Below are positions 172-64,000 of a stretch of DNA of 64,000 bases, piece after piece; within the stretch, counting starts at the first letter, position 1, and each line of letters begins with the position of its first letter. Made by a program: the position numbers and the translations under genes. The notes below the pieces were generated by a model. It did no database searches. It had not been told where the DNA came from and saw nothing but the letters and a program-made list of their open reading frames with translations. Source of the DNA: Spirochaetota bacterium (GTDB taxonomy: Bacteria; Spirochaetota; UBA4802; UB4802); NCBI GenBank assembly GCA_026414805.1, contig JAOAIH010000004.1:15808-79807 (forward strand), written 5' to 3'.

Positions 172-972
172 ATGGCAAATAAAAAATTTAAGGAATTTGA
201 TGCAATTGATGAAGATGAACTTTGGAAACGATATGCCAAGACTCAAGATCAGGCAATAAGAGACTATTTTGTGATTAAATATGCACCTTTGGTAAAGTAT
301 GTTGCTGGAAAAATTGCTATGGGGATGCCAAGTTCTATAGAGTTTGATGACCTTGTTTCGTATGGTGTATTTGGATTAATTGATGCAATAACAAAATTTG
401 ATCCTGAACGTGGTATTAAATTCAAAACATACGCAATGACACGAATACGCGGTGCAATTTTTGATGAATTGCGTTCAATAGACTGGATACCTCGTTCAAT
501 ACGGCAAAAGGCCAAGCAAATTGAGCAGGCTATTGCAGACCTTGAAAACAAATTGGGAAGAACTGTTGAAGACGAGGAGATTGCTAAAGAGTTGGGAATC
601 ACTGTTGAAGAATTTCAATCATTACTCAATAAGCTCAGCGGCACAGCGATGCTATCATTGAATGATATATGGTATGTGGGCGATGAAAATGATGAGCTAT
701 CGATACTGGAAACTCTGGAAGCACCCGATACGCTGAATCCAGATGTTATGATAGAAAAGGAAGAAATTCGTGATTATATTGTTGATGCAATAAAAAAATT
801 GCCTGATAAAGAAAAAAAGGTGATAGTTCTGTATTATTATGAAGATCTTACACTTAAGGAAATTGGAGAAGTTCTTGAGGTTACCGAAAGCCGGGTATCG
901 CAGTTGCATACTAAAGCTATTATGCGATTACGAGGAAGATTGGGGAGGATTAAATCAAATATTGTTGGATAA
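172..972 (+). CDS. fliA: Flagellar RNA polymerase sigma factor sigma-28 (FliA/WhiG family)
   Basis: 266 aa. Sigma-70 region 2 ([39 protein letters not shown]), region 3, and a region 4 HTH ([29 protein letters not shown]). GAGG ribosome-binding site upstream. Confidence 0.9.
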
Positions 973-1030
973 ATTGTAATTAAGGGCATATGCCAGATAA
1001 TTATAAAATGAATCTCTGGATATTAGTATC

Positions 1031-3007
1031 ATGAAGAAATTAAAAGATCTGATGAAAACAATACAGGATGATGAGTCATCCGAAAATGAAATAGAAGTGT
1101 TAGCTGATTCTGTGAAACAGGCACTGGAACTTGCTGCTACTGAACTTGGTGTTGATATTTCAGAGCTTGATTATCAGATTTTGGAAAAGGGTACATCAGG
1201 GTTCATGGGTATTGGAAGACAGCCGTATCGGGTTTTGGTACGCCCAATAATCTCTGAAAAAGAAGAGGAAGAAGATTTTAGAGCGATAGAACAAAAACTA
1301 CATACCATACCAGAAGCTGACCTTACAATTAAAGATGTACCAAAGAATGTTGATGGTTCTGCAAAAATACGAGTTACCAAAACAGGTATATGGTTGACAG
1401 TAACTCCACCAAAAGGAAGTGGCAGACGTGTAGACCTGTCAGATGTTACAAATAAAATATATGCATTGCGCATCCAAAATGCGGATATGTCAAAAATAGA
1501 AAAAGAAGTGCGCAATCCATCAGGCAAACCTATAAAAATAGGTGATTGGATTCCAAATCCAGAATATGATGGGACAATGACTGTTGAGATTACTGATGAT
1601 GAAATGAAAGCATTTGTTCATTTTGTTCCACCACGATTTTGCGGACGACATATGGATGTTGATGATGTTGTTGAAGCTTTGAAACGTGCAGGAGTAGTAA
1701 CAGGTATAAAAGAAGAAAGAATTGCCCAATATCTTGAAAAAATGGATTACAGCCAGCCTCTCCTTGCAGCGGAAGGAACTCCACCACGTCATGGACGTGA
1801 TGCATATATAGACTACAAAGTAAGAATTGATAAGAGTGGAATTCAGTTAGAGGAAGATGAAAAAGGAAGAGTTGATTTTAAGGATCTTGATTTACTTGAA
1901 AATGTTGTTGTTGGACAGGTGCTGGCAGTAAAGGTGCCTGCTGAGGAAGGGGTGCCGGGAAGAACGGTAACAAATAGAATCATTCCTGCCCGCTCTGGAA
2001 AGGATATTCAGATAAAATACGGGAAGGGAACAATATTGTCACAAGATGGCACAGAGCTAACTGCAGAAATTAATGGGCAGGTAGTGTACCAGAATGGTAA
2101 ACTCAGTGTTGAGCCTATATATGTTGTGAAAGGGGATGTTTCCACCGAGACAGGTAATATCGTATTTTTGGGTTCTGTTATTGTCAGTGGGAGTGTGCAG
2201 GATAATTTTACCGTAAAGGCTGCTGGCAATATTGAGATTAAAGGTACTGTACAAAAAGCAAATCTTGAAGCTGAAGGAGATATTATTATACGCCAGGGTA
2301 TAATGGGTAGGGAAGGAGCACGGATAGAATCAACTGGTGGTTCTATTATAGCTAAATTTATACAAACAGCAACGGTAGTAGCCGAAAAGGATGTGATAGT
2401 TGCTGAAGGTATTGTTCATTCCAATGTGGATGCAGGTAACAGAATTATTTGCAATGGAAGACGAGCCAGGATAGTTGGTGGATTAATTAGAGCTGGAGAG
2501 GAGGTCAATTCCAAGTATGTTGGGTCTGATTCATTTACTAAAACAGTTGTAAGAGTTGGAATGAATCCAAAAGTGCTCCAGCAACTTACAGAGTTGGAGG
2601 AAAACAAGCGAACTATTTCCGAGGAGTTTGATAAAGTAAGAAAGGATGTAACAACACTTACTGTACAAAAAAATAATGCTGGAGGTCATTTGCCAAAAGA
2701 TAAGGAAGAGCTTTTAGGCAAACTTGTTGCTCAAAAGCAAAAGTTGGAGCAGCGGCTCAATGAAATTAATCTGTCGCTGGAAGAATTGAAAGCGTATCTT
2801 AATATGCTAGAGCAGAAGGGCAAAGTATGTGTTGAAAAGACCATATTCCCAGGGGTAGAAATATATATTAAAGATAAACGTTTTAATGTTAAAGATCCTT
2901 ACAATTATGTGAAGTTTTCTCTTGAAGGAGCTGATATACGACTTTCTGAGTATGAACCTCCAGATTTGGGTGAAGCACAAAAATTAATGATAAGGAGGAG
3001 AAGGTAA
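1031..3007 (+). CDS. fapA: Flagellar assembly protein A-like (FapA/DUF342 family)
   Basis: 658 aa. The N-terminal domain, a long central beta-helix-like glycine- and valine-rich region (GNIVFLGSVIVSGSV..., GNIEIKGTV...) and a C-terminal coiled coil are typical of DUF342. Located directly after fliA. Confidence 0.7.
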   Translation: MKKLKDLMKTIQDDESSENEIEVLADSVKQALELAATELGVDISELDYQILEKGTSGFMGIGRQPYRVLVRPIISEKEEEEDFRAIEQKLHTIPEADLTIKDVPKNVDGSAKIRVTKTGIWLTVTPPKGSGRRVDLSDVTNKIYALRIQNADMSKIEKEVRNPSGKPIKIGDWIPNPEYDGTMTVEITDDEMKAFVHFVPPRFCGRHMDVDDVVEALKRAGVVTGIKEERIAQYLEKMDYSQPLLAAEGTPPRHGRDAYIDYKVRIDKSGIQLEEDEKGRVDFKDLDLLENVVVGQVLAVKVPAEEGVPGRTVTNRIIPARSGKDIQIKYGKGTILSQDGTELTAEINGQVVYQNGKLSVEPIYVVKGDVSTETGNIVFLGSVIVSGSVQDNFTVKAAGNIEIKGTVQKANLEAEGDIIIRQGIMGREGARIESTGGSIIAKFIQTATVVAEKDVIVAEGIVHSNVDAGNRIICNGRRARIVGGLIRAGEEVNSKYVGSDSFTKTVVRVGMNPKVLQQLTELEENKRTISEEFDKVRKDVTTLTVQKNNAGGHLPKDKEELLGKLVAQKQKLEQRLNEINLSLEELKAYLNMLEQKGKVCVEKTIFPGVEIYIKDKRFNVKDPYNYVKFSLEGADIRLSEYEPPDLGEAQKLMIRRRR

Positions 3008-3031
3008 GAAAGTTTTAACTGGGAGAAAGTT

Positions 3032-3343
3032 ATGGCAATCAAACCAATAGATTTGCAAACCAACATAGCCCAGATGATAGAAGTGGCTAGAGGAGAGCAT
3101 GCAAGAAATGCTGCTGCAGTTGAACAGCAACATATATTAAGTAAGGAATCTCAGGAAAAGGCTAATATTCAGAAGGAAAAGGTTGAAGAAAACAAAAAGG
3201 CAGAAAGAACAATAATTTTAAACGAAGAAAAACAGTTTAAGAAGGGGAAACAATTTCAAAAAGGAGAAAAGAAGGAAAAACAGGAGCAGCCTGAAATACC
3301 AGAAGATACAAAAATTGGAAGAATTATTGATGTAAAAAAATAA
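3032..3343 (+). CDS. Hypothetical lysine/glutamate-rich protein in the flagellar locus
   Basis: 103-aa ORF with a GGGAGA ribosome-binding site. Low-complexity, charged C-terminus. No recognisable domain. Confidence 0.5.
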   Translation: MAIKPIDLQTNIAQMIEVARGEHARNAAAVEQQHILSKESQEKANIQKEKVEENKKAERTIILNEEKQFKKGKQFQKGEKKEKQEQPEIPEDTKIGRIIDVKK

Positions 3344-3360: not shown

Positions 3361-4203
3361 ATGCAGCTTATTATTCTTATAATGGTGAATATTTTAATAG
3401 CATCTATATTTTATCTTATTATATCGCTTAAATTAGAGCGTTCAGCCACAGAATTCCGCTCAAAGAAGTTACGAAAAGAAATGGAAGAGCTTATCAATGA
3501 ATTTAATCATACGGCTGAACGTAATTTATCTTTGCTGGAATATAAAATTAATATCCTCCGTGAATTGCTAAAAAAAGCTGATGCATTACCAACACTTGAT
3601 ATAACCATTAATGATGATGAAAAAATAGCAGGTGCCAAAAAAACCAAAAAGAGATCAAGCCAAAAAATAGAAGATAACGATTCTGCATTGCACCCCAATA
3701 AAATGAGCATGCAATCAGTAAATTTTGAAACCCCTTATGATAGTAAAAAACAAACTGTTAGAGAATCAAATAATAATACATTATTATATCTTCAAAAAGA
3801 AGCTAACAGCTCTTTCCAGGAAAACAAATCACAACTTCCTACTGTTAAAGAACAATTAGCAGAAATAGGGAAAATTATTTTTTATAGATTGCGACAGTAT
3901 ATTGAAAATAAATCTGCTAAAAAAGCAAATAATTCTATTAATCAATATGTTGAAGATTTATCCAATACTGCTATTTTGGATTATGATGAACCTCAAGAAC
4001 AATTTCGTGGAAATTCAGATATGGCTATAAGCACTGCTTTTGATGAAAATGAATTGATGGCACTTTATCGGAATGCTGACGACAAATATTTGATGATTGC
4101 AAAATTGTATAGCCAGGGTTGTTCTCTACAGTTACTATCGAAAATTTCTGGAATTCCGGTTGGGGAGATATCGCTTATTTTGAATCTTTCAATGAAAAAA
4201 TAA
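3361..4203 (+). CDS. Hypothetical membrane-anchored protein with a C-terminal sigma-70 region-4-like helix-turn-helix
   Basis: 280 aa. N-terminal transmembrane helix (LIILIMVNILIASIFYLIISL). The C-terminus (ELMALYRNADDKYLMIAKLYSQGCSLQLLSKISGIPVGEISLILNL) resembles sigma region 4 or LuxR-type HTH. Sits between fapA and cheR. Confidence 0.55.
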   Translation: MQLIILIMVNILIASIFYLIISLKLERSATEFRSKKLRKEMEELINEFNHTAERNLSLLEYKINILRELLKKADALPTLDITINDDEKIAGAKKTKKRSSQKIEDNDSALHPNKMSMQSVNFETPYDSKKQTVRESNNNTLLYLQKEANSSFQENKSQLPTVKEQLAEIGKIIFYRLRQYIENKSAKKANNSINQYVEDLSNTAILDYDEPQEQFRGNSDMAISTAFDENELMALYRNADDKYLMIAKLYSQGCSLQLLSKISGIPVGEISLILNLSMKK

Positions 4204-5101: not shown

Positions 5102-5570
5102 ACTTATTACTGTTCCAATAGCCGATTATAAAGTTTCAAAATCTCCAGATATATTGCGTACAATATTAGGTTCATGTGTGGGAATATGCCTGTATGATCC
5201 TGAAAACAAGATTGGTGGACTTGCCCATATTATGCTACCGGAAAATAATGATAAATCAACAAATCCAAAGAAATATGCTGATAGTGCGATAGCTCTTATG
5301 ATAGAGGAATTGTGCAAAAGTGGTGCAAATGCCGAGCATTTAGTAGCAAAAATTGCAGGTGGTGCATCAATGTTTAAAATGCCTGAAAATTCTTTTATTG
5401 GTTCAATAGGCATAAACAATGTACATAAAGTGCGGGATGTTTTGAATGAATACCATATAACGATTATTGGCGAAGATGTGTTTGGTGATTATGGTAGAAC
5501 GGTTGATTTTTTCCTGGAAACAGGGAAGCTAAAAATTAAGTCATTAGGCCGTGAGGATAAAGAAATATAG
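5091..5570 (+). CDS. cheD: Chemoreceptor glutamine deamidase CheD
   Basis: 159 aa. CheD signature LGSCVGICLYDP...GGLAHIMLP. Overlaps the cheR 3' end by 11 nt, implying translational coupling. Confidence 0.85.
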   Translation: MDFKLITVPIADYKVSKSPDILRTILGSCVGICLYDPENKIGGLAHIMLPENNDKSTNPKKYADSAIALMIEELCKSGANAEHLVAKIAGGASMFKMPENSFIGSIGINNVHKVRDVLNEYHITIIGEDVFGDYGRTVDFFLETGKLKIKSLGREDKEI

Positions 5571-6472: not shown

Positions 6473-6724
6473 ATGAAATCGACTACACTAATAAACATTG
6501 GCTTTGGCAATGCTGTTGTAGCTGAACGAGTAATAGCTGTCATTACCCCAATGTCTGCTTCAGGTAAGCGCTTACGTGAAGAAGCAAAAGAAAATAACAT
6601 GCTGATAGACGCAACTCATGGACGAAAAACGCGTGCTATAATTATAATGGATAGCAATCATGTAATATTATCGGCAATGCAACCGGAAACTATCGCAAAC
6701 AGATTAAATCAAAGTGAAGAATAG
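6473..6724 (+). CDS. remA: DUF370 / RemA-like regulatory protein
   Basis: 83 aa. [19 protein letters not shown]...[11 protein letters not shown]...[26 protein letters not shown] matches the RemA/DUF370 family. Confidence 0.75.
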
Positions 6725-8534: not shown

Positions 8535-8718
8535 TGTAGTACGATAGTTACTGAGTCATAAGCATTATAATAATAAATAATACTAATGATCAATTTTAAG
8601 ATATAATTTGTAAAAAAATATTGATATTATTTATGTTCAATGATATGTAAGTGTATTGTGGTGCAATATTGTTAAAATAAAATAATATATAAAATTAAAT
8701 AAATAAAGAGGGTACACA

Positions 8719-8952: not shown

Positions 8953-9837
8953 ATGGGTAAAGTACAAAAAATTGTTGTTGCAGCGTTTATTATTGCTGCC
9001 CTTATTTATGTTTTTGTACGTGTAGTTGTGATTGTTGGAGATGGTGTAGTGGCAATTGTCACTGATAAAGAAGGTCAGGTATTAGGACAATTGCACAAAG
9101 GTGTTAATATAGTTCCTCAGGGGATAACTACTCACATTAAAGCACACTATATCCCACTGAATAATACATGTCATGTGGACATTACCATACCGGTTCCTCC
9201 ACTAGAAGTAATTAAAAGTGAACATTATTCTATTAAGATTCCTGTAGCTGTTACTTACAGGCTTAATCCGGGTCAATTATCACTTGATTTATACAAACTG
9301 TATTCAGATGCACAGTACCTGCCTCAACAAATTCAGCTACGATTACTTAGCAGTATTAAAGATAATATTGCCTTCCATCTTTATCCATACTACCAGTATA
9401 ATGTATTGCAAGCCAATATCAACAGGGAAATAGGGCAGGCGATAGCTCATGTTAAAGAATCTTTTATCAAAGAAGGCATACTGATACAAGATGCTACTGT
9501 GGGTGTCATCTATATGCCAGATTATGCTGTATATGCTGAGGGTAAAAAATTTTTACTTGAATTGCTGACACAGGAGAAATTGAATGCCATACAGCGTAAT
9601 GAATTGCAACATCAGCTCAAGCAAGAACAGATGCGAAATGAACAATATTTGGCCTATCTTGAAAAGATGTCACAAATTATTTCAAAAAACAAGGATATTT
9701 TGCAATATATTTATATTGACAAATTAGCGGATAATGTGAGGGTGATAGTTACTTCGGACAAAAATGTTCCATGGGATATAGCAAGTGAGAGTGGCTCAGA
9801 ATCTTTAAAGAAAGATTTTGATAATTTTAAAAAATAG
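8953..9837 (+). CDS. SPFH/band-7 (HflC/HflK-like) membrane protein, putative
   Basis: 294 aa. N-terminal transmembrane helix, then VVIVGDGVVAIVTDKEGQVLGQLHKGVNIVPQG..., which resembles the start of an SPFH domain. Position after hfq parallels hfq-hflXKC. The family assignment is only moderately supported. Confidence 0.45.
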   Translation: MGKVQKIVVAAFIIAALIYVFVRVVVIVGDGVVAIVTDKEGQVLGQLHKGVNIVPQGITTHIKAHYIPLNNTCHVDITIPVPPLEVIKSEHYSIKIPVAVTYRLNPGQLSLDLYKLYSDAQYLPQQIQLRLLSSIKDNIAFHLYPYYQYNVLQANINREIGQAIAHVKESFIKEGILIQDATVGVIYMPDYAVYAEGKKFLLELLTQEKLNAIQRNELQHQLKQEQMRNEQYLAYLEKMSQIISKNKDILQYIYIDKLADNVRVIVTSDKNVPWDIASESGSESLKKDFDNFKK

Positions 9838-11951: not shown

Positions 11952-12942
11952 TTATATGACAGCAAGAAAAGCTTTATATTCTTCCGCAATGATTTCGGGC
12001 ATTAGCAGAGTAAATGAATCATCATGTAACATTTGGAGATAGTTGATTTCGCTTGTTGCATTTGGTGGAAATGTTACTCGTGGACATATTCGTATGTGTG
12101 GATAAAAGATATTATTATTAGCAATAGAATAGAAGGCCATATTAAAATTATCAATTTTTTTACTGTGTAGATACTGAAGAGTTTTTATCAAATATTCTAT
12201 TACTGTGTAAAGTTTTCCTTTTAATGTGTGTAGTGGTGCAAAGTGGTGGAGTATTCCCAAAATATCAAACTGACCTCTTGGGGCAAAAGCCACTAACCAG
12301 GTACTATCGCCCAAACTTATAATAATCCGTTCATTGAGTTGTTTTTCAAGATTTATGTAATCCCAAAATAGGTTGTTGTTTTTTTCAAGGTTTGACAGTA
12401 TGTCAGTATAGTAATTGGATGGCGTTGATGACGCTATAACCTGAAGATGAGGATGTATTAAAGAGCTTCCTGCAACTGGCATATAATTCCAGTTTATGGA
12501 TTGATAGGGATACTGTGCTGGGTCAATGTCGGATAAAAATAATAATGCACATTCAAATGCATCCTGTAACATTTCAAAACTAAAATTGTTTATAGCTACA
12601 TAGTGCTGGCTTGTTATGGTGACAACGGCGTTATGTTCATCATAGGGAAATGCGTTGGGGAAGCAACGTGCATTGCCATAGGTATACCTGTTCCTTAAGG
12701 GGTGAGGTAAATTTTGGGGTCAGAGCATCAATGAGCCCGGGGCAAAAGGGGCATGTTTTGGCTGATTCTTCTATCATTGTGCTGCGATCTGTGGTTGCAA
12801 ATTCTTTCAATGACATTCCTAATACACGTGTGTTGCGTCCGGTTAAAGGGCAGTAGCGGATTTGGCAGGTACGTTGTGTTTCCTTAAATTGCTGGAACGG
12901 GTCTTTTATGGTTATTGTCTTGGTTTCTTTTTTTAATTGCAT
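11952..12942 (-). pseudogene. galT: Galactose-1-phosphate uridylyltransferase-like (GalT/HIT family) gene split by a frameshift
   Basis: N-terminal part 12640..12942 (RYCPLTG...CPFCPG zinc motif) and C-terminal part 11952..12572 (WNYMPVAGSSLIHPHLQV, the HPH active site) lie in different frames about 67 nt apart. Short C/G homopolymer runs lie at the junction. Either a true pseudogene or a sequencing indel. Confidence 0.6.
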
Positions 12943-14995: not shown

Positions 14996-17043
<2,048 letters not shown>

Positions 17044-51847: not shown

Positions 51848-51850
51848 AAT

Positions 51851-51890: not shown

Positions 51891-51901
51891 TCTATTGTCG
51901 T

Positions 51902-54669: not shown

Positions 54670-56133
54670 TTATGAAGAATAGTTTTTTACAAATTCATAT
54701 AATAATCTTACCCCAAATCCTGTGGCATTTTTTGGATTATAGCCACGCTTTTTTGAATACCACGCTGTGCCAGCTATATCAATATGAGCCCAAGGTGTAT
54801 TTTCAACAAAATTTTTTAGGAATATCGCTCCAATAATTGTGCCTGCGTTTCTAACAGGTGGGACATTAATGATATCAGCAATGTCGGATTTGATTTCTTC
54901 ATTGTATTCGGGATATAATGGCATGCGCCATATTTTTTCACCTGTAATGTCTGACGCTTTGGTGAGTACTTGAGATAAATTTTCATCATTTGTCAGATAC
55001 GCAGCTACTATCTCCCCAAAACTAACAATACAAGCTCCCGTGAGCGTTGCAATATCAACAATAGCTTTAGGTTTTAATTTTCTTTCAATAAAGGATAATG
55101 CATCAGCCAGTATAAGGCGCCCTTCAGCGTCCGTGTTGCCAATCTCAACGGTTTTGCCGTTGTACGCGGTAAACACATCACCTGGTTTATATGCAGTATG
55201 CGAAATCATATTTTCAGCAAGTGGTATTACTGCATACACATTCACTGGTAGCTTCATCTGGGCAATTGCATTAATTGCATAAATGCACGAAGCTGCGCCA
55301 GCCATATCGGTGCGCATTGTCTCAATATGTCCTGAAGGCTTTAAGTTAATACCGCCTGTATCAAAGGTTATACCTTTACCTGCAATAGCTATCGCATCTT
55401 TTTTTGGTGCTCCCCTATAGTGCATAACTATTAAATATGGTGGGTATTTGCTGCCCTGGCTGACAGCTAACAGCAGTCCCATTTTCATTTTTTCTATATC
55501 TTTTTTATTGAACACTGTACATTTTATCTTTGATTGTGTGGCAATTGTTTTTGCAATTTTGGCGATAGTTACTGGATTAGCATTTTCAGTGGTTTCGTTA
55601 ACTAAATCACGGCACAGTAAAGTGTTGTGGCATACAATCTCTACTTCTTTAAGAATTGGCAACAGCTGTGCGGGATTATCACACAGTAATATAGCCTTTT
55701 CTAATAATGGGTTTATTTCATCTTTTTTAGTTTTATAGCGATTAAATGCATAGTTTGAAAGATATAATCCTTCGGCAATGCATCGGCCACTATCTTTTAT
55801 ATTTATATTATCAGGAACAACAACATGAACTTCCAAAACTGATTTGTCCTGGCATGCACCAACTATAACACTTGCTGCGTTGCGCAAAGTTTCTTGTGTC
55901 ACATCTTTATGGCTACCCAGCCCAACAAGAAGAATTGAAGGCTTATCTTTCAACGCTGCAAAAAAATAGGTGCCCTGTTTTGCTTTAAAGTTTTTTGTGT
56001 TGATGAATGAAAAAACATCAGACAGCTGTTGAGGAATAAACGTATTGTTGGCAATCTGTTCTTGGGTACAAAGTAATGCAACAGTTGCAGATGGTAGTAC
56101 AACATCAAACTTTTTTGCCTGTAAAGTGAACAT
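54670..56133 (-). CDS. pepA: Leucyl aminopeptidase (M17 family)
   Basis: 487 aa. M17 signature NTDAEGRLILADAL and the conserved metal-binding region. Confidence 0.85.
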   Translation of the reverse strand: MFTLQAKKFDVVLPSATVALLCTQEQIANNTFIPQQLSDVFSFINTKNFKAKQGTYFFAALKDKPSILLVGLGSHKDVTQETLRNAASVIVGACQDKSVLEVHVVVPDNINIKDSGRCIAEGLYLSNYAFNRYKTKKDEINPLLEKAILLCDNPAQLLPILKEVEIVCHNTLLCRDLVNETTENANPVTIAKIAKTIATQSKIKCTVFNKKDIEKMKMGLLLAVSQGSKYPPYLIVMHYRGAPKKDAIAIAGKGITFDTGGINLKPSGHIETMRTDMAGAASCIYAINAIAQMKLPVNVYAVIPLAENMISHTAYKPGDVFTAYNGKTVEIGNTDAEGRLILADALSFIERKLKPKAIVDIATLTGACIVSFGEIVAAYLTNDENLSQVLTKASDITGEKIWRMPLYPEYNEEIKSDIADIINVPPVRNAGTIIGAIFLKNFVENTPWAHIDIAGTAWYSKKRGYNPKNATGFGVRLLYEFVKNYSS

Positions 56134-56145: not shown

Positions 56146-58233
56146 TTATACTACATCAAAATCTATGCGCATAAGGTCAGTGTCAACACTTTTTAACCTG
56201 ACTTTAATAATGTCACCAAGCCTGAAACGGCGTCCCAGACGTTTGCCTATTACCGTGTATTCATCTTCATTGACAAGGTAATAATCATCGGTAAGGAATT
56301 TCAACGGAACCATACCTTCTATTGGTTTGTCAAGCAAACTTACATAAAATCCAAATCGTGTTACTCCGCTTATAATGCCTTCAAATTCCTGGCCAACCTT
56401 ATCCTCAAGCAGTCTGCACCCTTTGAGTTTCAAGAGGTCACGTTCAGCTGATTGAGCCACACGTTCAAGTTTTGATGATTGCTCGCCTATTGCGGCCAAT
56501 TCCTCAGGCAAGTAGGGTGGCGGAGTGTTGTCAATTAATGATTTTATACAGCGGTGTACTATAAGATCAGGATAACGACGTATGGGCGAGGTAAAGTGCG
56601 TGTAATCTTTAAATCCCAGTCCAAAATGCCCAAGCGGAGTGGGGCCATAGTATGCCTGCATCAATGATTTTAACACTATGAAATTTACAACCTGCTGATA
56701 TTCTTTTTGTGCCACTGAATCAATTACCCTTTGCAGAGCAAGTCCAAGATTTTCTTCTTCTTTTAGAGTAATGCCTAATGTTTTAAGGAAGTTTTGCAAT
56801 GCTATAAATTTTTCTTCGGCAATTGGCTCGTGAACGCGATGCAGTGCTGGTATATCATGTTGGCGCAAGACACGAGATACAATTTCGTTGGCACTGAGCA
56901 TGAATTCTTCAATTATCATGTGACTTTCAAGGCGAGTAGCAAAGGCAATATCAGCAATTGAAGCGTTGTTGTCAAATATCATCTCTGCATCTGCAAGGTT
57001 TAAATCAACCCTGCCATTGGATAAGCGTTTAGCTTTAAGCTTAAATGCCAGATCCCTGGCATGAGAAAGCATTGTTTTGATTTTGCCTCGTTTTTTTGAA
57101 TTCAATATTTCTTGGGCCTGGGTGTAGGTTAACCGCTCATTAACGTTTATTATAGCACGGTGTATTGAATGTGTGCGATAGTTACCATGCACATCAAACT
57201 GCATCATAACCGAAAGTGTTAACCTATCAACACCTGCTTTCAGTGAGCACAGGTCATTAGATAACTTTTCAGGGAGCATTGGTATAACAGCATTGCCAAG
57301 ATAATAGCTGGTACCGCGGTTGTAAGCTTCCTTATCAATGGCATCATCTTTGTACACATATGCAGATACATCAGCGATATGGACATAAAGTGTATAAATG
57401 CCATTTTTATACTCAAGCGAAATAGCATCGTCAAAATCTTTAGCTGTTTCACCATCTATGGTTACTGTTACAAGCTTTCGGTAATCCTTACGGTTTTTAT
57501 GTTCATGTGGCTTAACATATTCTTCAATCTTTTCAAGATGTTTATATTCAGGGTGTACACCAGGCAGCGAGTGCTTGCTTACAATGCGCTGAATATCGTA
57601 TTGTTCCTCGTGGTGGATGATTGTATTAATGCTGCATTCTTGATAATTCTGTATAAAAGAATTTTTAACAGTAACTATCGCCAAACTTTTTGGTTTTATA
57701 TTTTCTTTTGTGATGACCTGGATATTGCCAGGAACATCAAGAAGCTGCAAAATGCTGAATTTCCCATTAGGTTTAATGCAGCGTGCAAAAAACATCTGTT
57801 TATTTGGAGATACAATTTCGGTAACCCTGCCAAACAATGTGCCATGCCGTATATCAGTTAGCTGTACTTTCACTTGGTCCTTATTGCGTGCATGGTTTAC
57901 ATCTTCACGGAAAATGTGCACTTCAATATCGTCATTTATATATACCACACCGTGGCCTTTTTTATTATGAATAAAAGTGCCAGTAAAAGTAAAAGGCTGA
58001 GCAATTTTAAATTTACCCTTTTGCTTTGTCAGAAAACCATAGTGGAAAAGAGTGGCAATAGTGTTTTGTACACGGTTGGCAGTTTTCTGAGTTTCTCGTT
58101 GTGTGGTTTTGCTTTTTTTTGGTTTTTTACTTTTTGTCTTTGTGAGCAATACTGTGGCTACAATATCCTGAGGTGTAAAATAACCTTTTTGTTTTTCAAT
58201 TGTTTGTAAAATACGCGATGATGTTTTAGACAT
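56146..58233 (-). CDS. rnr: Ribonuclease R (RNB family, with a C-terminal S1 domain)
   Basis: 695 aa. Cold-shock/OB domains and an RNB catalytic domain (DFDDAISLE...). Confidence 0.85.
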   Translation of the reverse strand: MSKTSSRILQTIEKQKGYFTPQDIVATVLLTKTKSKKPKKSKTTQRETQKTANRVQNTIATLFHYGFLTKQKGKFKIAQPFTFTGTFIHNKKGHGVVYINDDIEVHIFREDVNHARNKDQVKVQLTDIRHGTLFGRVTEIVSPNKQMFFARCIKPNGKFSILQLLDVPGNIQVITKENIKPKSLAIVTVKNSFIQNYQECSINTIIHHEEQYDIQRIVSKHSLPGVHPEYKHLEKIEEYVKPHEHKNRKDYRKLVTVTIDGETAKDFDDAISLEYKNGIYTLYVHIADVSAYVYKDDAIDKEAYNRGTSYYLGNAVIPMLPEKLSNDLCSLKAGVDRLTLSVMMQFDVHGNYRTHSIHRAIINVNERLTYTQAQEILNSKKRGKIKTMLSHARDLAFKLKAKRLSNGRVDLNLADAEMIFDNNASIADIAFATRLESHMIIEEFMLSANEIVSRVLRQHDIPALHRVHEPIAEEKFIALQNFLKTLGITLKEEENLGLALQRVIDSVAQKEYQQVVNFIVLKSLMQAYYGPTPLGHFGLGFKDYTHFTSPIRRYPDLIVHRCIKSLIDNTPPPYLPEELAAIGEQSSKLERVAQSAERDLLKLKGCRLLEDKVGQEFEGIISGVTRFGFYVSLLDKPIEGMVPLKFLTDDYYLVNEDEYTVIGKRLGRRFRLGDIIKVRLKSVDTDLMRIDFDVV

Positions 58234-58246: not shown

Positions 58247-58564
58247 TTAATATCGATTATGTTTGGATTCATAAAGTTCTTTAATTTTTTTAATTTCGTT
58301 TTGTTTTTCCTGTATTTTTGCTTTATAATCATTAATGGTGGCGACAGCTCCGGAAATAAACTCATCTGTGTTAGATAAAAGTTTGCCACTTGACACTGAG
58401 TCATACACATACTTGCCTGTATTTAAATATATCTCTTTAATGGAATGTTCCAACTTTTTTATCTCCATTGTAATTCGTGCTATTTGAGCCAGTTCTTCGG
58501 TTTTATCTAAAAATCGTTCGCTGAAATTGAGCAATGATTCGCCAGCATCTTTAAGAAATCCCAT
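58247..58564 (-). CDS. Hypothetical coiled-coil protein
   Basis: 105-aa ORF directly downstream of rnr on the same strand. Confidence 0.4.
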   Translation of the reverse strand: MGFLKDAGESLLNFSERFLDKTEELAQIARITMEIKKLEHSIKEIYLNTGKYVYDSVSSGKLLSNTDEFISGAVATINDYKAKIQEKQNEIKKIKELYESKHNRY

Positions 58565-58633: not shown

Positions 58634-59959
58634 TTAAAATGCAATTGATTCTCCAATGTAAATGCTTATACGGTGTGTATAGTGGTGTACTATGGGGTCA
58701 GAGCCAGAAGAAACCGTATAGAATCTAAAACCACGAATATCGCCTATCCCCAACTGATACGATACTCCAATGGTTGTCCACATGCTTTTTGCTTTTATTG
58801 TATCGTTTTGTAAGGGATTTAAATCATTGCCAAACGAAAAGCTTAATGTTGCTCCATAGTAGTCATTTTTTTCATCATTTTCGGAAGTCTGTGTTACTGT
58901 ATTTTTTTGGCTGAAGTCAGTAAAAAAGCCGGTTCTTACTATTACATCATCATGTATATATATTTCCAAACCAACTTTGCCATTTAAGACTTTTTTTGGA
59001 TAATCTGGATTTGTATAGTGCATGATCCCTTCACATGTAAATGACCATTTACCTTCACGTGTGTATCCATAACCCAGTGAGATATATGCAGGAACTATCT
59101 TAAAGCGAAAATTATCTTCTACTGTTGTACTTTCAGAACTGTTGGAAGGAAAGATGGGGCCAACCTGTTGAGTTGTCATCTTTTCTTTTCTTGATGCGTA
59201 TACTCTGTATACAGGCGAACGGTAGTATGCACCAAGATGATGATGGGGAGTCAACAAATATTGCATACCAACACCACCAAATGAAGTCATTGCAGTTAGC
59301 TCATTATCAATAATCATTGCAATTTCACTTTGATTAGTTCCACCGGGGTCAAGATATGCAGAAATATTTGCCCCACCTTTGCCTTGAAAATACCCTAATG
59401 CTGCTGTTAATCCTGCATTGAGATTATTGCTGATTTTTAAACCATATCCTGCTATGCCATAGTATGCTTTCGTGTTGATTCTATACGTAGCATTAAGATC
59501 AACATTCATGACACTACCAGTTGCTCTCCCTGCTATAGTAGCCTGAATTGCATCCTGCATTGGAACAAACAATCCGTATGCAATAACATCATTGCCTATC
59601 CAATTAACTCTGCGTGCATATGCAACGCTTGTAGGAATAACTGAAATATCAGTTTCTTTCAAGTCTAGGCTTTGATATTTGCCTGCTTGCTCTTCAATTT
59701 GCCAGTATTGTGGTGAGTTGCGTGTTAAGTAGCTATACGTATTAACCGAAAGATTTAATTTACTATCAATAATGTTGGCTAAACCTGCAGGGTTATACCA
59801 TAACGCAGCTCCGTCATTAGCTAATGCACAATATGCACCACCAAGCCCGGCTGCTCTTTCGCCAATTAAATGCTGGTAATTGTTGTAGTTTTCAAGAAAA
59901 CAGAAGCCATTGGAATATATAAAAATCACTACCAATGTAGCAGTAATTTTTTGTAACAT
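58634..59959 (-). CDS. Outer-membrane beta-barrel protein, FadL/TodX-like
   Basis: 441 aa. Signal peptide. N-terminal hatch motif AAGLGGAYCALANDGAALWYNPAGLA. C-terminal ...IGESIAF ending in Phe. Confidence 0.7.
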   Translation of the reverse strand: MLQKITATLVVIFIYSNGFCFLENYNNYQHLIGERAAGLGGAYCALANDGAALWYNPAGLANIIDSKLNLSVNTYSYLTRNSPQYWQIEEQAGKYQSLDLKETDISVIPTSVAYARRVNWIGNDVIAYGLFVPMQDAIQATIAGRATGSVMNVDLNATYRINTKAYYGIAGYGLKISNNLNAGLTAALGYFQGKGGANISAYLDPGGTNQSEIAMIIDNELTAMTSFGGVGMQYLLTPHHHLGAYYRSPVYRVYASRKEKMTTQQVGPIFPSNSSESTTVEDNFRFKIVPAYISLGYGYTREGKWSFTCEGIMHYTNPDYPKKVLNGKVGLEIYIHDDVIVRTGFFTDFSQKNTVTQTSENDEKNDYYGATLSFSFGNDLNPLQNDTIKAKSMWTTIGVSYQLGIGDIRGFRFYTVSSGSDPIVHHYTHRISIYIGESIAF

Positions 59960-60101: not shown

Positions 60102-60386
60102 ATGCAGAAATATCAGAAAAACAAGAGTAATCATATGAATACATCAGAATGTTGCACTTCATCCACATGTTCAATTGAGGCGATAGTGACTGTTGATGAA
60201 CGTGGACAGGTAGTATTGCCGAAAGAATTGCGAGATAAATTTGGGGTCAAAGCAGGAGATAAATTTATTGTGGCATCGTTGATGAACGATGCTTCGTTGT
60301 GTTGCATCGCCTTAATTAAAGCCGATTCTTTAAATTCAGTTATAGTTGAGCAGATAGCTCCTGTAGTAAGTGGAGTGCGAAAATAA
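60102..60386 (+). CDS. AbrB/MazE-like (SpoVT_AbrB swapped-hairpin) protein with vicinal-cysteine clusters
   Basis: 94 aa (or 83 aa from the internal Met). AbrB-like core AIVTVDERGQVVLPKELRDKFGVKAGDKFIV. Cysteine clusters CCTSSTC and LCC. Confidence 0.6.
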   Translation: MQKYQKNKSNHMNTSECCTSSTCSIEAIVTVDERGQVVLPKELRDKFGVKAGDKFIVASLMNDASLCCIALIKADSLNSVIVEQIAPVVSGVRK

Positions 60387-60664: not shown

Positions 60665-61456
60665 ATGGAATCAAATGAAAAAATTAAAAAGATAGTAAAA
60701 CAAAATTATGGCAGTATAGCATTACTAAAAACTTCCTGTTGTTCAGGGAGTAGTTGCTGTACCCCAGCTGACGTAGCAACAAAAATTGGCTATAGTGAAA
60801 ATGAATTAGCTGAACTTGATTCAGCTAATTTGGGGTTGGGATGCGGCAATCCAAATGCAATAGCTACTCTTAAAGAAGGTGAGGTGGTGCTTGATCTTGG
60901 CAGTGGTGCGGGTATTGATTGTTTTCTAGCATCACGAAAAGTTGGTTCAACAGGGAAAGTTATTGGAATTGATATGACACCGGAAATGATTGCACTTGCT
61001 AAAGAGAATGCACAAAAATTAAATATTACCAATGTTGAATTTATTTTAGGTGATATAGAAGACCTGCCAGTTGAAAATGATTCGATTGATGTAATACTAT
61101 CCAATTGTGTTATAAATTTGGCTCCGGACAAAGAAAAAGTATTTAATGAAGCATACAGAGTATTAAAGAATCATGGAAGGCTTGTAGTATCAGATATAGT
61201 GCTGGAAGGTACGCTTCCTAATCAAATAAAAAATTCAATTGATGCGTATGTAAGCTGCATTGCAGGTGCAATCCAAAAAGAGGAGTATATTTCATTACTG
61301 TATAAAGCTGGATTTACTCATGTTGAAATTGTAAAAGAATATAGTTATAGCACTATATTTGAAAATGAAGAATTGTGTAGTCATAACGTATCTAATACAG
61401 ATTATGCAAAGTATAAAGATGTTGTGAAAAGTATAAGTATAATTGCATGGAAATAG
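60665..61456 (+). CDS. arsM: Arsenite S-adenosylmethionine methyltransferase ArsM
   Basis: N-terminal cysteine pairs (CCSGSSCC), SAM-methyltransferase motif VLDLGSGAGID and the conserved NCVINL cysteine. Start placed at MESNEKIKK (the track ORF begins at 60635). Confidence 0.85.
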   Translation: MESNEKIKKIVKQNYGSIALLKTSCCSGSSCCTPADVATKIGYSENELAELDSANLGLGCGNPNAIATLKEGEVVLDLGSGAGIDCFLASRKVGSTGKVIGIDMTPEMIALAKENAQKLNITNVEFILGDIEDLPVENDSIDVILSNCVINLAPDKEKVFNEAYRVLKNHGRLVVSDIVLEGTLPNQIKNSIDAYVSCIAGAIQKEEYISLLYKAGFTHVEIVKEYSYSTIFENEELCSHNVSNTDYAKYKDVVKSISIIAWK

Positions 61457-61545: not shown

Positions 61546-62913
61546 ATGAAAGAAGGATATGTAGTCCCTACTATTGAAAAAATAGCATATGGCCTTGGGG
61601 ATCTAGCAATTAATATTGCCTATACTACTATCGGCTTTTATTTTTTGTTCTTTTTGGTTAATGTTGCAGGATTACCTCCACAGTGGGCTGGAATTATTTT
61701 CTTTTTAGCCCGTGCATGGGATGCAATAACCGACCCGCTTATGGGAATGATATCTGACCGTACTGTATCCAAATATGGAAGGCGAAGGGTCTATTTTTTG
61801 TTTGGCTGCATTCCGTTTGGAATAATGTTTATGCTAATCTGGCTGGTACCTTCATTTAACCATCTTATGATGTTTGGATATTATACTGCAATAGCAATCC
61901 TGTTTAATACTGCGTTCACAGTGGTGGCTGTTCCCTATAATGCCCTGATGCCGGAGCTATCGCAAAACTATGACGAACGTACAAGTATATCCGGGTATCG
62001 TATGTCACTTTCATTTGTTGGCAATCTTGTTGCTGCTGTTGGAGTATCTGTAATTGTTGATGTTGTCTTCAAAGGCAAAGAACAGTATACTACAAGCTAT
62101 CCTGTTATGGGTGTTGTTTTTGGTATCATTATCATTATTTTAATTTTCATCACCTTTGTGGGAACAAAGGAACGTGTCAAGTCACAAGCGTTACTCCATG
62201 AAGGGCTTTTCAAGACATTTAAAGCTGTATTGAGTTTACGGGAATTCAGGATACTGCTGGGAATGTTTTTATTCAATATGATTGGGTTTGACCTTATACA
62301 AGCATTATTTATATTCTTTTTAAAAGATGTCATTTTAATTTCTGAAGATATGACATTCGTTGTAATGGGCATTCCGCTTATTATTGCGGTGATGTCAGCT
62401 CCACTGTGGATTTATGTTTCAGATAAATTAGATAAACGCAGGGCATATATAGTTGCTGCAGTGTATTTTACGCTATCGCTATTGTTATGCCTGATAGCTC
62501 CGGTAGGGAGTCTTTGGTTTGTAATAGCAATTGGTGTGCTGGCAGGAGTAGGCATTTCAGCATCACAGATTATTCCATTTTCCATGATTCCTGATGTCAT
62601 TGAATATGATGAATACAAAAACGGCGTACGTCGGGAAGGAGCTTTTTATGGCATTACTACTTTTTTGTATAAAGTGGCATCAGCGTCAGCAATTGCGGTT
62701 GCATCAGCAATACTGGGTTATTTTGGCTACATTGAAAACAGTATAGCAGCGCAGCCACAATCTGCAATTCACGCTATTCGCTATATGATGGCGTTTGCAC
62801 CGGGTATATGTTTTTTGGTTTCAGTGTATTTTGTTTCAATTCTTCCTATTACTAGGGAGGGGTTTGATGAAATAAAAAGAGCACTGGAGCAACGAAAAAC
62901 AGGTTCCATATAA
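61546..62913 (+). CDS. MFS transporter, glycoside-pentoside-hexuronide (GPH) cation-symporter family
   Basis: 455 aa, about 12 transmembrane helices. MelB/GPH-type N-terminal pattern (GLGDLAINIAYTTIGFYFLFF...). Confidence 0.75.
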   Translation: MKEGYVVPTIEKIAYGLGDLAINIAYTTIGFYFLFFLVNVAGLPPQWAGIIFFLARAWDAITDPLMGMISDRTVSKYGRRRVYFLFGCIPFGIMFMLIWLVPSFNHLMMFGYYTAIAILFNTAFTVVAVPYNALMPELSQNYDERTSISGYRMSLSFVGNLVAAVGVSVIVDVVFKGKEQYTTSYPVMGVVFGIIIIILIFITFVGTKERVKSQALLHEGLFKTFKAVLSLREFRILLGMFLFNMIGFDLIQALFIFFLKDVILISEDMTFVVMGIPLIIAVMSAPLWIYVSDKLDKRRAYIVAAVYFTLSLLLCLIAPVGSLWFVIAIGVLAGVGISASQIIPFSMIPDVIEYDEYKNGVRREGAFYGITTFLYKVASASAIAVASAILGYFGYIENSIAAQPQSAIHAIRYMMAFAPGICFLVSVYFVSILPITREGFDEIKRALEQRKTGSI

Positions 62914-63000
62914 ATTAATTAAGGCCAGAATGGCCAAAAGCATATTGCCGGTCAAAATCAAAGTGACAGTGGTGAAATTCAATAAATGAGAGGAAATTGT

Positions 63001-63531
63001 ATGAGATATTCAGCAATATTGATATCAGTAATTGTATTAAATATAGTACTGTTATCGGGTTGTGCCCGTAAAGAAAAGGGAAGGTATTATAATGATGAAT
63101 ATGGTTTTTCGATCGTTTTTCCAAAATATTGGGAAATCCAGCAAAAGGAAATGGGTGCAGTGGTGATTGCGTTAAGCCCTGAAGAAGGGAGCAAGGATGA
63201 TTTCAGGGAAAATGTTGCCATAACTGTAGAAAATATGACAGACAATGTAACACTGGAACAATATTTTGAGCTATCGCAAAAAAATCTTAAAAATTATTCA
63301 AAAGATTACAAGCTATTGTATAAAAATACTACCTGGCTTGCTAAAAAACCTGCCATGATTTTAGGTTTTACATACTCAATGAGTGGTCTCAAATTGAAGG
63401 TGTTACAGTATTATTGCCTCAATAACAGTAAAGCATATGTAATAACCTGTACAGCACTGCCGCATTCATTTGGCCGTTATGAAGAATCATTTTTAAAGAT
63501 AGTGAGGTCTTTTCGTTTTGAAAAGAAATAA
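63001..63531 (+). CDS. Hypothetical lipoprotein
   Basis: Signal peptide with lipobox MRYSAILISVIVLNIVLLSGC. About 176 aa. Confidence 0.6.
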   Translation: MRYSAILISVIVLNIVLLSGCARKEKGRYYNDEYGFSIVFPKYWEIQQKEMGAVVIALSPEEGSKDDFRENVAITVENMTDNVTLEQYFELSQKNLKNYSKDYKLLYKNTTWLAKKPAMILGFTYSMSGLKLKVLQYYCLNNSKAYVITCTALPHSFGRYEESFLKIVRSFRFEKK

Positions 63532-63544
63532 TGTAAACATCACA

Positions 63545-64000
63545 TTATTTTGAATGTATTGTGCATAAATTATTTATTGAAGAAACAGGAATAATAATAT
63601 CTCCAAGATCTAAAAAAGCATTTATCAAGCTTATATGTGTAAATGCAGATATATCATTGACTGTGATGTATGCTTCTTTGATTTTTCCTTCATCAATGAG
63701 TTTGGCGCGTTTTGTGCCTGCAAGAAGCGGCGTTTTTGGGGTAAACCACATGCTGCCATCATACAGGGCTACATTTGCTGAAGAGCTATCGGTAACTAAC
63801 CCCCTTTTTATAATTAAAATATCGTCGGCATTTCCACGTTGTTCAAATAGCTGCGTTATCCGTGATCTATCTGCATATTTATAGGGGTAATCTATAGTAT
63901 CGTCTACTATAATTGTTACTGTGGATATAGATTTTCTTTTATACAATTCATATTCAATTTTTTTTACTGTTGCATTGTAATACACCCGTATTTTCCAGAT
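63545..64000 (-). CDS. Class IV aminotransferase-fold protein (branched-chain aminotransferase / aminodeoxychorismate lyase-like), C-terminal part; the N-terminus lies outside the window
   Basis: Conserved region ILIIKRGLVTDSSSANVALYDGSMWFTP...LLAGTKR. The ORF stays open to the window edge. Confidence 0.6.
   Translation of the reverse strand: MWKIRVYYNATVKKIEYELYKRKSISTVTIIVDDTIDYPYKYADRSRITQLFEQRGNADDILIIKRGLVTDSSSANVALYDGSMWFTPKTPLLAGTKRAKLIDEGKIKEAYITVNDISAFTHISLINAFLDLGDIIIPVSSINNLCTIHSK

Follow-up and report, generated by a model that had tools for sequence, protein, structure and literature searches.

A short asymmetric DNA motif in vast excess in one genus-level clade of Spirochaetota: a possible self-DNA watermark

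Introduction

The DNA uptake sequence (DUS) of Neisseriaceae occurs in thousands of copies and forms lineage dialects (PMC3630211). The cyanobacterial Highly Iterated Palindrome HIP1 (GCGATCGC) is 15-300-fold over-represented and conserved (PMC5861425). It has been reported to boost natural transformation (10.1101/2024.09.10.611283; 10.64898/2026.06.24.733823), whereas a nucleoid- or chromosome-structuring function was proposed by Xu, Lawrence and Durand (PMC5861425), and the choice between nucleoid structure and transformation is debated. Chi, KOPS and architecture-imparting sequences are short, asymmetric words, found mostly within genes, that DNA-processing machines read; they are modestly over-represented and strongly co-oriented with replication. 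No earlier report of a motif of such kind in spirochaetes was found in the searchable literature. Nor, to our knowledge, has any spirochaete been described as naturally transformable with sequence-specific uptake.

The DNA analysed here is a 64-kb stretch (the window) from an uncultured Leptospirales-like Spirochaetota MAG, in which a first-pass annotation had recorded strong over-representation of the word GAGCTATCG.

Motif sequence and abundance

The window holds 17 exact copies of GAGCTATCG, 10 on the plus and 7 on the minus strand. A set of 100 dinucleotide-preserving shuffles of the window gives an expected count of 0.10, with a maximum of 1, and an order-3 Markov model predicts 0.235; the excess is about 70-170-fold. 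The earlier rough expectation of 0.2-0.3 was fair, and the over-representation is stronger than claimed. The earlier count was 15; the minus-strand copies at 5287 and 9440 had been missed. One copy given at 39650 lies at 39640, every other listed position being correct.

This word is the sharpest portion of a degenerate, non-palindromic motif of ~14 nt, C-A-G-[G/T]-A-[G/A]-C-T-A-T-C-G-C-[C/A], also written CAG-GAG/TAA-CTATCGCC. The motif has a short, strong core, weaker flanks and an abundance of T on its 5' side (~16 bits in total); CTATCG is the essential core, and the triplet in the middle varies within limits (GAG, TAA, GTA). The related word (CA)GTAACTATCGCC, noted in the same annotation, is also real. 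It is found as exact CAGTAACTATCGCC at 17622..17635 (+; lnt, sense N-Y-R frame), 55561..55574 (-; pepA, pair I25) and 57669..57682 (+; RNase R, antisense A-I-V, kept in metagenome relatives), each scoring 22.3 bits, and the site at 57174..57187 (-; TGGTAACTATCGCA, 16.3 bits, RNase R, kept in L321) ends in CA. Both forms had been under-described, as they are two faces of a single 14-nt motif with ~47 sites.

With a cut-off of 13 bits, below which exact GAGCTATCG copies with weak flanks can fall, 47 sites are present in the 64 kb versus ~2.6 in order-3 Markov simulations, or ~1 site per 1.4 kb. Beyond ~20 nt the flanks of the sites are unrelated. One-off variants are 2-7-fold enriched and not depleted, which is the expected result of graded recognition and mutational decay.

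Placement in genes and intergenic DNA

The Glu-Leu-Ser reading proposed earlier proved correct for nine GAGCTATCG sites in eight genes. These are 694..702 (+; fliA, sense D-E-L-S, weak flanks, below 13 bits), 16646..16659 (+; CAGGAGCTATCGCC, 24.6 bits, ligA, sense Q-E-L-S-P), two sites in the PAS histidine kinase at 23711..23724 (+; again CAGGAGCTATCGCC, 24.6 bits, Q-E-L-S-P) and 25793..25806 (+; CATGAGCTATCGGG, 15.5 bits, H-E-L-S-G), 37910..37923 (-; AATGAGCTATCGCC, 18.5 bits, larC, N-E-L-S-P), the CAGGAGCTATCGCA copies at 39638..39651 (-; larB) and 43026..43039 (-; rsmI), both with 23.5 bits and Q-E-L-S-H, 61951..61964 (+; CCGGAGCTATCGCA, 20.1 bits, MFS transporter, P-E-L-S-Q) and 63265..63278 (+; TTTGAGCTATCGCA, 14.7 bits, PsbP-like gene, F-E-L-S-Q). 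As had been suspected, CTA and TCG are minor codons in the window (9% of Leu and 9% of Ser; GAG makes up 22% of Glu). The general codon bias that might have explained the triplet was not found: GAG-CTA-TCG encodes 9 of the 18 E-L-S tripeptides in the window, against a fraction of 0.0019 expected from codon usage.

Other sense sites lie at 4129..4142 (+; CAGTTACTATCGAA, 14.4 bits, Q-L-L-S; CTATCG kept in 6/7 aligned genomes, namely the window and L002-L006), 23136..23149 (+; TAGGAGCTATCGAA, 16.0 bits, histidine kinase, G-A-I-E frame), 32091..32104 (-; CAGTAACTATCGCA, 21.2 bits, GH13, N-Y-R frame) and 53543..53556 (-; CAGGTACTATCGCA, 20.3 bits, acs, T-I-A frame).

The A-I-A and T-D-S-S frames reported earlier were borne out. 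Antisense A-I-A is found at 5285..5298 (-; TAAGAGCTATCGCA, 17.1 bits, cheD, identical in six species), 9438..9451 (-; CATGAGCTATCGCC, 22.4 bits, SPFH gene, CTATCGC kept in six species), 33078..33091 (+; TATGAGCTATCGCC, 19.4 bits, GH13) and 43744..43757 (-; CAAGAGCTATCGCC, 21.2 bits, class-V aminotransferase), and antisense T-D-S-S at the exact, weakly flanked copy 63783..63791 (+; class-IV aminotransferase fragment). Antisense A-I-V is encoded at 18591..18604 (-; CGATAACTATCGCC, 17.0 bits), 22669..22682 (-; CTGAAACTATCGCC, 16.2 bits, histidine kinase) and 45958..45971 (-; CAGCTACTATCGCA, 18.2 bits, ABC ATPase), and antisense G-D-S-T at 12298..12311 (+; CAGGTACTATCGCC, 21.4 bits, orthologous copies in L001, L004 and L005). 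Further antisense sites are 2392..2405 (-; CAGCAACTATCACA, 15.5 bits, FapA gene), 29873..29886 (+; CAGCAGCTATCTCC, 19.1 bits, cyclase gene) and 38823..38836 (+; CAGGAGCTATCTCA, 20.1 bits, larC).

Intergenic DNA carries the motif at 6684..6697 (+; CGGAAACTATCGCA, 16.9 bits, kept in 5/6 species), 8540..8553 (-; CAGTAACTATCGTA, 16.7 bits, specific to the window's species), 37239..37252 (+; CATGAGCTATCGTA, 16.9 bits), 41295..41308 (+; TAGTAACTATCGGC, 15.9 bits), 41453..41466 (+; CACTAACTATCGCC, 19.7 bits, family D12), 60179..60192 (-; CAGTCACTATCGCC, 19.4 bits) and 60350..60363 (-; CAGGAGCTATCTGC, 17.8 bits), and the exact copy with weak flanks at 27259..27267 (-). Two GAGCTATCG copies are intergenic, as the annotation had stated.

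Three sites fall within paralogous PAS repeats of family D3: 21211..21224 (-; CGCGTACTATTGCC, a weak site of 13.2 bits, which is therefore not an independent copy), 22354..22367 (-; CACGAACTATCGCC, 21.1 bits) and 23536..23549 (-; CACGTACTATTGCC, 15.1 bits). The remaining sites are 9741..9754 (-; AAGTAACTATCACC) and 41920..41933 (-; CTTGAACTATTGCA), both weak at 13.2 bits, 47244..47257 (+; TATTCGCTATCGCC, 15.1 bits), 49571..49584 (+; GAGTACCTATCGCC, 14.5 bits), 55002..55015 (+; CAGCTACTATCTCC, 15.9 bits, kept in metagenome relatives), 58340..58353 (-; CCGGAGCTGTCGCC, 16.6 bits, one-off core CTGTCG), 59089..59102 (+; CAGGAACTATCTTA, 14.7 bits) and 60856..60869 (-; GAGTAGCTATTGCA, 14.3 bits), and a near-palindrome at 55381..55396 (TGCAATAGCTATCGCA) holding two overlapping opposite-strand sites of 13.1 and 18.7 bits.

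The motif thus occupies all five stop-free frames as well as intergenic DNA, in both orientations, and leaves an imprint on the proteome (ELS 2.9x and AIA 2.6x over expectation). Because of the E-L-S codon excess, the use of all five frames and the intergenic copies, the cause of the motif excess lies at the level of DNA and not of codons or peptides. The earlier claim of selection or drive on the DNA word itself is upheld by the same evidence together with lineage-specificity.

With respect to genes, 20 window sites are sense, 20 antisense and 7 intergenic; clade-wide the figures are 60 sense and 59 antisense. The strands are also balanced in the window (22 plus, 25 minus). The motif has no strand, transcription or replication polarity.

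Lineage distribution, gain and retention

In congeneric species, represented by independent assemblies, the motif is equally dense (~3-11 per 10 kb), and 225 kb of clade DNA contain 132 sites (5.9 per 10 kb). One sister lineage shows an intermediate density, and the motif is absent from 2.2 Mb of more distant Spirochaetota loci (0.26-0.36 per 10 kb). The motif is confined to one genus-level clade, within which it recurs in independent NCBI, ENA and JGI assemblies.

Where orthologous sequence lacks the motif, it aligns with the sites without gaps, and some gains are species-specific; the sites therefore originate by substitution and not by insertion. Once present, they are conserved between species: CTATCGC is retained in 65% of cases versus 34% for all 7-mers, about twofold.

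Comparison with known systems

In several respects the motif is like the DNA uptake sequences by which Neisseria and Haemophilus recognise their own DNA (DUS and USS): it has a short, non-palindromic core with weaker flanks, is present in vast excess in both orientations at ~1 copy per 1-1.5 kb and leaves a measurable imprint on tripeptide usage. Like the USS, it lies mainly inside genes, in several frames, and is made by substitution. Related species have it in common and it is lacking outside the lineage, again as with USS and DUS (PMC3630211; PMC3458573). Unlike them, it belongs to another phylum (Spirochaetota), is unrelated in sequence, varies in its middle triplet and is genus-level, not family-level. 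A gene-terminus bias is reported for the Pasteurellaceae USS (PMC2346458), whereas the sites of the motif are spread evenly along genes (KS p=0.70). The inverted-pair terminators of Neisseria have no equivalent among the window sites.

HIP1 is likewise a hyper-abundant intragenic word that is conserved at orthologous positions and cannot be accounted for by a function of codons, peptides or RNA. However, HIP1 is a perfect 8-nt palindrome, contains known methylase sites (GATC, CGATCG) and is phylum-wide, whereas the motif is asymmetric, ~14 nt long, genus-wide and without known methylase link. Both the uptake-sequence-like and the HIP1-like candidates of the first-pass annotation fit the motif anatomy.

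Possible function

By analogy with these systems, the motif may mark the DNA of its lineage as self, a watermark comparable to DUS, USS and HIP1 that serves in DNA uptake or in recombination during transformation; we put the probability of this at roughly 0.4. A putative cognate receptor, as a sequence-specific DNA-binding component of the uptake or transformation-recombination machinery, would favour motif-bearing fragments. Alleles gaining a better match by point mutation would be taken up and recombined more often, and the motif would spread into any coding frame tolerating it and then be kept. Several results count against the presumed link to uptake or recombination. In the 64-kb window, no genes for competence, pili, DNA methylases or restriction were found, the sites are not spaced significantly more evenly than at random (CV 0.83, p=0.12), and inverted pairs are lacking among them. 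Furthermore, the genus-level range is narrower than the family-wide range of DUS and USS, and the higher site retention is equally expected from a binding-site function unrelated to uptake.

Such a function is the basis of a less probable reading, in which an abundant chromosome-structuring or nucleoid-associated protein binds the motif and the sites are kept for chromosome organisation. The twofold retention at orthologous positions would fit this, as would non-polar, mainly intragenic sites graded in strength and the precedent of HIP1, which is conserved, shows no link with genes or RNA and recurs with a period of 10-90 kb (PMC5861425). The random-like spacing in the window speaks against it. 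The motif is also very recent and genus-restricted, which would call for a dominant DNA-binding protein that is itself new. We know of no nucleoid protein imposing an exact 7-14-nt word inside genes at ~1 per 1.4 kb.

Somewhat more doubtful still is a neutral origin, in which the motif, without a function of its own, is inflated by a sequence-specific DNA methyltransferase together with very-short-patch-like biased mismatch repair, or by another context-specific mutational drive. HIP-type motifs co-occur with orphan methyltransferases recognising internal sub-sequences (PMC4390886). The motif core includes CpG, and at two orthologous sites the CTATCGC of the clade is replaced in the fringe lineage L006 by CTATCAC, which on the complementary strand is a C-to-T transition. 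Against this, the deamination products are enriched and not depleted (CTATTGC 1.9x, CTATCAC 2.3-2.6x, CTATCGT 2.7-3.4x), the sites are position-conserved and not just replenished, and a 14-nt context with a variable middle triplet would be needed, unlike known methylase sites. Neither DNA methylase nor Vsr-like genes were found in the 64-kb window.

A Chi-like signal had also been suggested in the annotation. A polar signal for recombination or segregation, of Chi or KOPS/AIMS type and oriented with replication, is highly improbable and was rejected. The motif is short, non-palindromic, over-represented and intragenic, and in transformation HIP1 has been described as acting "in a manner reminiscent of Chi" (10.1101/2024.09.10.611283). 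However, GC skew is positive in 14/16 4-kb bins of the window, the cumulative skew climbs almost monotonically, and nothing in the profile points to an origin or terminus within the window. Within this one-sided skew the orientation is balanced; the probability of at most 22 of 47 sites is 0.0008 under a 70% orientation skew and 0.011 for the opposite polarity. Known Chi sites fall far below the motif in both excess (70-150-fold for the motif) and length (14 nt).

An artefactual origin can practically be dismissed, whether from preferred codons or tripeptides, a protein motif that recurs, a miniature mobile element (or the footprint left by its excision) or the assembly. The PAS repeats and the ELS and AIA enrichment point towards such an origin, but a triplet of three minor codons in half of E-L-S versus 0.2% expected, sites in five frames, both strands and intergenic DNA, flanks without relation beyond ~20 nt, orthologue alignments without indels and recurrence across independent assemblies all oppose it.

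As a minor likeness, the reverse complement of the motif (GGCGATAG...) has the half-site GGCGAT of extended HIP1, quite possibly by coincidence.

Abundance and anatomy of the motif

An unbiased k-mer survey of the window yielded a single strongly over-represented word family. The family comes in two forms, (CAG)GAGCTATCGC(C) and CAGTAACTATCGCC, with the core CTATCG(C) common to both. The exact word GAGCTATCG is present in 17 copies in the 64-kb window, ten on the plus strand and seven on the minus strand, versus a mean expectation of 0.10 (maximum 1) in dinucleotide-preserving shuffles of the window and 0.235 under an order-3 Markov model. The first-pass annotation had listed 15 copies; all of these are among the 17, with the position 39650 corrected to 39640, and the minus-strand copies at 5287 and 9440 had been overlooked. 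The core 6-mer CTATCG occurs 54 times in the window against 15.5 expected, and CTATCGC occurs 33 times against 2-5 expected.

Iterative PWM refinement gave an asymmetric consensus of 14 nt, C-A-G-[G/T]-A-[G/A]-C-T-A-T-C-G-C-[C/A], preceded by a weakly T-rich 5' flank (tCtTTtACAG...). The total information is about 16 bits, with 1.2-2.2 bits per position in the core CTATCG(C) and 0.6-1.0 in the 5' half (CAG and the middle triplet). Sites of at least 13 bits number 47 in the window, or one per 1.36 kb, whereas order-3 Markov simulations yield 2.6. Since the training data for the PWM came from this very window, the figure of 47 errs somewhat on the high side, a bias that leaves the exact-word counts untouched. 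Whole-genome totals of the motif are extrapolations rather than counts. Three of the sites (21211, 22354 and 23536) lie inside paralogous PAS-domain repeats of the repeat family D3 and are therefore not independent. The region 20327-27121 (+) encodes a single hybrid histidine kinase of 2264 aa with about a dozen PAS domains, one GAF domain, HisKA/HATPase and one receiver domain; its internal PAS repeats give rise to the direct-repeat families D1-D3 and to three weak motif matches.

Copy-to-copy similarity stops within ~18-22 nt of sequence, so the motif is a word and not a repeat element. A REP/MITE-type repeat was rejected on this ground as well as on the intragenic placement of 85% of the sites and the gap-free alignment with motif-free orthologues. 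AT content is 0.85-0.89 at positions -20/-19 and 0.74-0.81 just upstream (-7 to -1) of the sites, against a background of 0.64, the -19/-20 signal being borderline once multiple testing is considered. Furthermore, the copies at 9437, 37909 and 43743 have the 22-nt stretch AGGCGATAGCTCWTGTWAAAGA in common. Given these AT-rich positions and the shared stretch, the recognised element may be longer than 14 nt. At 55381-55396, two opposite-strand sites overlap in the near-palindrome TGCAATAGCTATCGCA; the window has no second case of this kind, and the overlap was judged to be due to chance.

Placement in genes and reading frames

The sites occupy all five stop-free reading frames; the sixth frame would hold TAG. 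The antisense A-I-A/V frame contains 19 sites and the sense E-L-S frame 11, followed by the sense G-A-I-A (5), sense N-Y-R (4) and antisense G/T-D-S (1) frames. The intergenic sites amount to 7 of 47 (15%), and non-coding DNA makes up 11% of the window. It had been suggested that the motif encodes Glu-Leu-Ser in at least eight genes, with codons expected to be rare, and that selection appears to act on the DNA word. Indeed, 9 of the 18 E-L-S tripeptides in the window are written GAG-CTA-TCG, for which codon usage predicts a fraction of 0.0019, and GAG (22%), CTA (9%) and TCG (9%) are confirmed as minor codons in the window genes. The rare-codon excess, together with the five frames and the intergenic copies, supports selection or drive on the word itself. 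Thus, the cause of the motif is at the DNA level and is neither codon nor peptide. The imprint on the proteome is modest, with ELS 2.9-fold and AIA 2.6-fold over expectation.

Sense and antisense sites are in parity (20:20) in the window, and the 225 kb of clade DNA give a ratio of 60:59; this balance excludes a function at the RNA level. Neither the Rfam scan nor the tRNA scan gave a match in the window, and they provide no RNA explanation. The position of sites within genes is uniform (KS p=0.70), and the test of relative gene position in the window showed no bias towards gene termini. The spacing of sites in the window shows no significant evenness (CV 0.83, p=0.12) and at short range is indistinguishable from random. 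All intergenic sites of the window are single, with no inverted pairs among them. Two intervals are the longest that lack sites or have just weak ones: 12300-16640, with the gene of a WG-repeat protein and the beginning of ligA, and 45960-53540, with an ABC-transporter/DUF4340/acetyl-CoA hydrolase block. These intervals may be DNA of more recent acquisition. The gene content of the window is ordinary, comprising housekeeping, chemotaxis and flagellar genes (fliA, fapA, cheR/D/W, ligA, lnt, larB/C, rsmI, acs, pepA, rnr and the PAS hybrid kinase among them); no competence, restriction or DNA-methylase genes were found among the genes of these 64 kb.

Distribution among Spirochaetota

The FapA protein places the window in an uncultured Leptospirales-like lineage of Spirochaetota. 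An exact look-up of this protein found no record, and its best match has only 95% protein identity (about 81% in DNA), so the species of the window is itself absent from the protein and genome collections searched. Several congeneric MAGs are recorded as 'Leptospira biflexa' or 'Leptospira sp.', apparently a loose taxonomic label. Five syntenic congeneric species (loci L001-L005), found through the FapA gene among GTDB species genomes, are 94% identical in protein and 80-82% in DNA and carry 2.7-5.3 sites per 10 kb. Independent metagenome contigs around the RNase R gene (L321-L325 and L328; 79-87% protein) carry 5.8-10.9 sites per 10 kb, and their commonest 14-mer is CAGTAACTATCGCC. The 225 kb of clade DNA contain 132 sites, and independent assemblies within the clade carry the same motif. 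The density is 0.36 sites per 10 kb in 74 more distant genomes (FapA gene, 1.4 Mb, <=75% protein), where CTATCGC is observed 66 times versus 87 expected, and 0.26 in 70 distant contigs (RNase R gene, 0.8 Mb, <=50% protein). Across these 2.2 Mb of other Spirochaetota loci the motif is absent. By these densities the motif belongs to one genus-level clade, and it looks evolutionarily young, being restricted to a genus with one intermediate sister lineage and clean outgroups.

The nearest outgroup of the clade is DCUV01000055.1 of Spirochaetia bacterium UBA2205 (L006; FapA gene, 88% protein), which has an intermediate motif density and a mix of CTATCAC (8 copies) and CTATCGC (3 copies), some of them shared and some private, with examples at 433 and 21345. 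Two of its orthologous sites differ from the clade solely by the G-to-A change that turns CTATCGC into CTATCAC. The CTATCAC form could be dialectal, could have decayed through CpG transition, or could mark the motif at an early point in its spread; assigning L006 a CTATCAC dialect was rejected as ambiguous, both forms being present. A division into GAG-type and TAA-type dialects was also rejected, as the middle triplet follows the reading frame and the amino acid encoded, and the mix varies as strongly by region as by species. Distinct dialects within the clade are not claimed. Two scans of viral collections with the 14-mers gave only single chance matches among the matches listed; the PWM density in the viral loci from these scans is at background, which says little about the phages of this host.

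Gain and retention of sites

Over the 12 kb open to comparison, the window is in full synteny with five other species of the genus. In the alignment of the six species, the sites 5287 and 9440 are identical in all of them, and 4135 and 6690 in nearly all. Many other sites are species-specific and align without gaps to motif-free sequence that is 2-4 substitutions apart. Sites are therefore born by point substitution and not by insertion. CTATCGC is retained between species in 65% of cases (100/155) versus 34% for all 7-mers, and the one-off neighbours of CTATCG in 31% versus 39% for all 6-mers, these figures being descriptive since the species pairs are non-independent.

Comparison with known systems and possible function

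The motif joins the hyper-abundant lineage-specific genomic words, a kind already known. To our knowledge, such genome-wide watermarks have been described in very few lineages, namely Neisseriaceae, Pasteurellaceae and cyanobacteria. The likeness to the uptake sequence of Neisseriaceae (DUS) and the uptake signal of Pasteurellaceae (USS) includes a copy number in the class of ~1 per kb (hundreds to thousands per genome), well beyond what base composition predicts, an asymmetric core that is short and flanked by weaker extensions, nearly equal use of both orientations without replication polarity, and presence in related species with absence from outgroups (shown here without distinct dialects). 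On the main features tested, the anatomy matches that of DUS and USS (PMC3630211, PMC3458573, PMC2346458). The hosts of such sequences are naturally competent and prefer motif-bearing DNA by way of a specific receptor, for example ComP. The spirochaete motif differs from the Neisseria DUS in lacking inverted-pair terminators and from the Pasteurellaceae USS in lacking a gene-terminus bias. Both features are habits of those lineages and do not strictly define uptake sequences. The cyanobacterial HIP1 is a perfectly palindromic octamer, unlike the asymmetric spirochaete motif, and resembles it in conservation at orthologous positions beyond background. HIP1 is conserved and 15-300-fold over-represented (PMC5861425); recent work reports that it enhances natural transformation and proposes that it is an uptake sequence (10.1101/2024.09.10.611283; 10.64898/2026.06.24.733823). 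HIP1-type words are further characterised by cognate orphan methyltransferases that recognise a sub-sequence within the word and by periodicity at 10-90 kb; the 64-kb window contains no DNA methylase. Searches of the accessible literature for the motif words gave only primers and unrelated matches, and in the literature searched, spirochaetes are not reported to have a motif resembling uptake sequences.

By analogy with these systems, the favoured reading is that the motif may be a watermark of self-DNA read by uptake or recombination machinery (probability roughly 0.4). Such machinery would recognise the motif as self, and molecular drive arising from motif-biased uptake or recombination would then spread it. 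It is a slightly more tentative proposal that this would be the first self-recognition sequence for uptake or transformation in Spirochaetota, an analogue of DUS and USS that evolved independently and recently within a single uncultured genus of Leptospirales-like bacteria. Should the uptake reading be true, the clade would be naturally competent, with uptake that is sequence-specific and a DNA receptor to match, and donor DNA supplied with the motif would make this uncultured group of spirochaetes accessible to genetics. As far as we know, comEC and dprA are near-universal, and their presence discriminates weakly for competence.

A binding site for nucleoid structuring is an unlikely alternative to the watermark. 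Somewhat less likely still, the motif could be a by-product of a methylase or of biased repair. Single-substitution variants of the core are 2-7-fold enriched, the products of C-to-T and G-to-A changes included. This argues against a very-short-patch-repair signature, where depletion of deamination products is expected, and fits graded recognition with decay. A polar signal of the Chi/KOPS type is very improbable; the first-pass annotation had listed a Chi-like signal as a candidate. Of the 16 bins, 14 have a positive GC skew, and the cumulative skew climbs almost monotonically, from which we infer that the window most probably lies within one replichore; the site orientation of 22+/25- contradicts co-orientation with replication (P=0.0008 for a 70% skew, 0.011 for the opposite sense). 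The GAG-CTA-TCG excess, the five frames and the gap-free orthologue alignment refute an artefact arising from codon usage, repeats or mobile elements. The leftover probability is assigned to something not yet imagined.

How genome-wide watermark motifs originate is an old question, which a young motif with motif-free sister lineages makes directly testable by comparative genomics. Comparison of motif-positive and motif-negative sister genomes could pinpoint the driver gene, be it for a receptor, for a methylase or for a protein of the nucleoid. Motif-positive MAGs have the contig prefixes CALEUQ01, JBBFLA01, CAZDWJ01, DYLU01 and JARYLT01, and motif-negative sisters have CAYFSO01 and CAZVRB01. 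Contigs of the genus can also be binned by the 14-mer, which is a sharp signature, and motif deserts would mark foreign DNA.

Other Spirochaetota loci of higher GC content (comparison loci L016, L032, L040, L042, L043, L045, L048, L075 and others) have, around the same gene, milder recurrent word excesses of their own, which may stem from conserved peptides or be additional lineage-specific words at the DNA level. In such loci, CATGGCCA is found in 5-8 copies per locus of 11-22 kb versus ~0.3-1 expected, and CTCGGTGA in 5-12 copies per locus of 20-22 kb versus ~1.2-1.9 expected.
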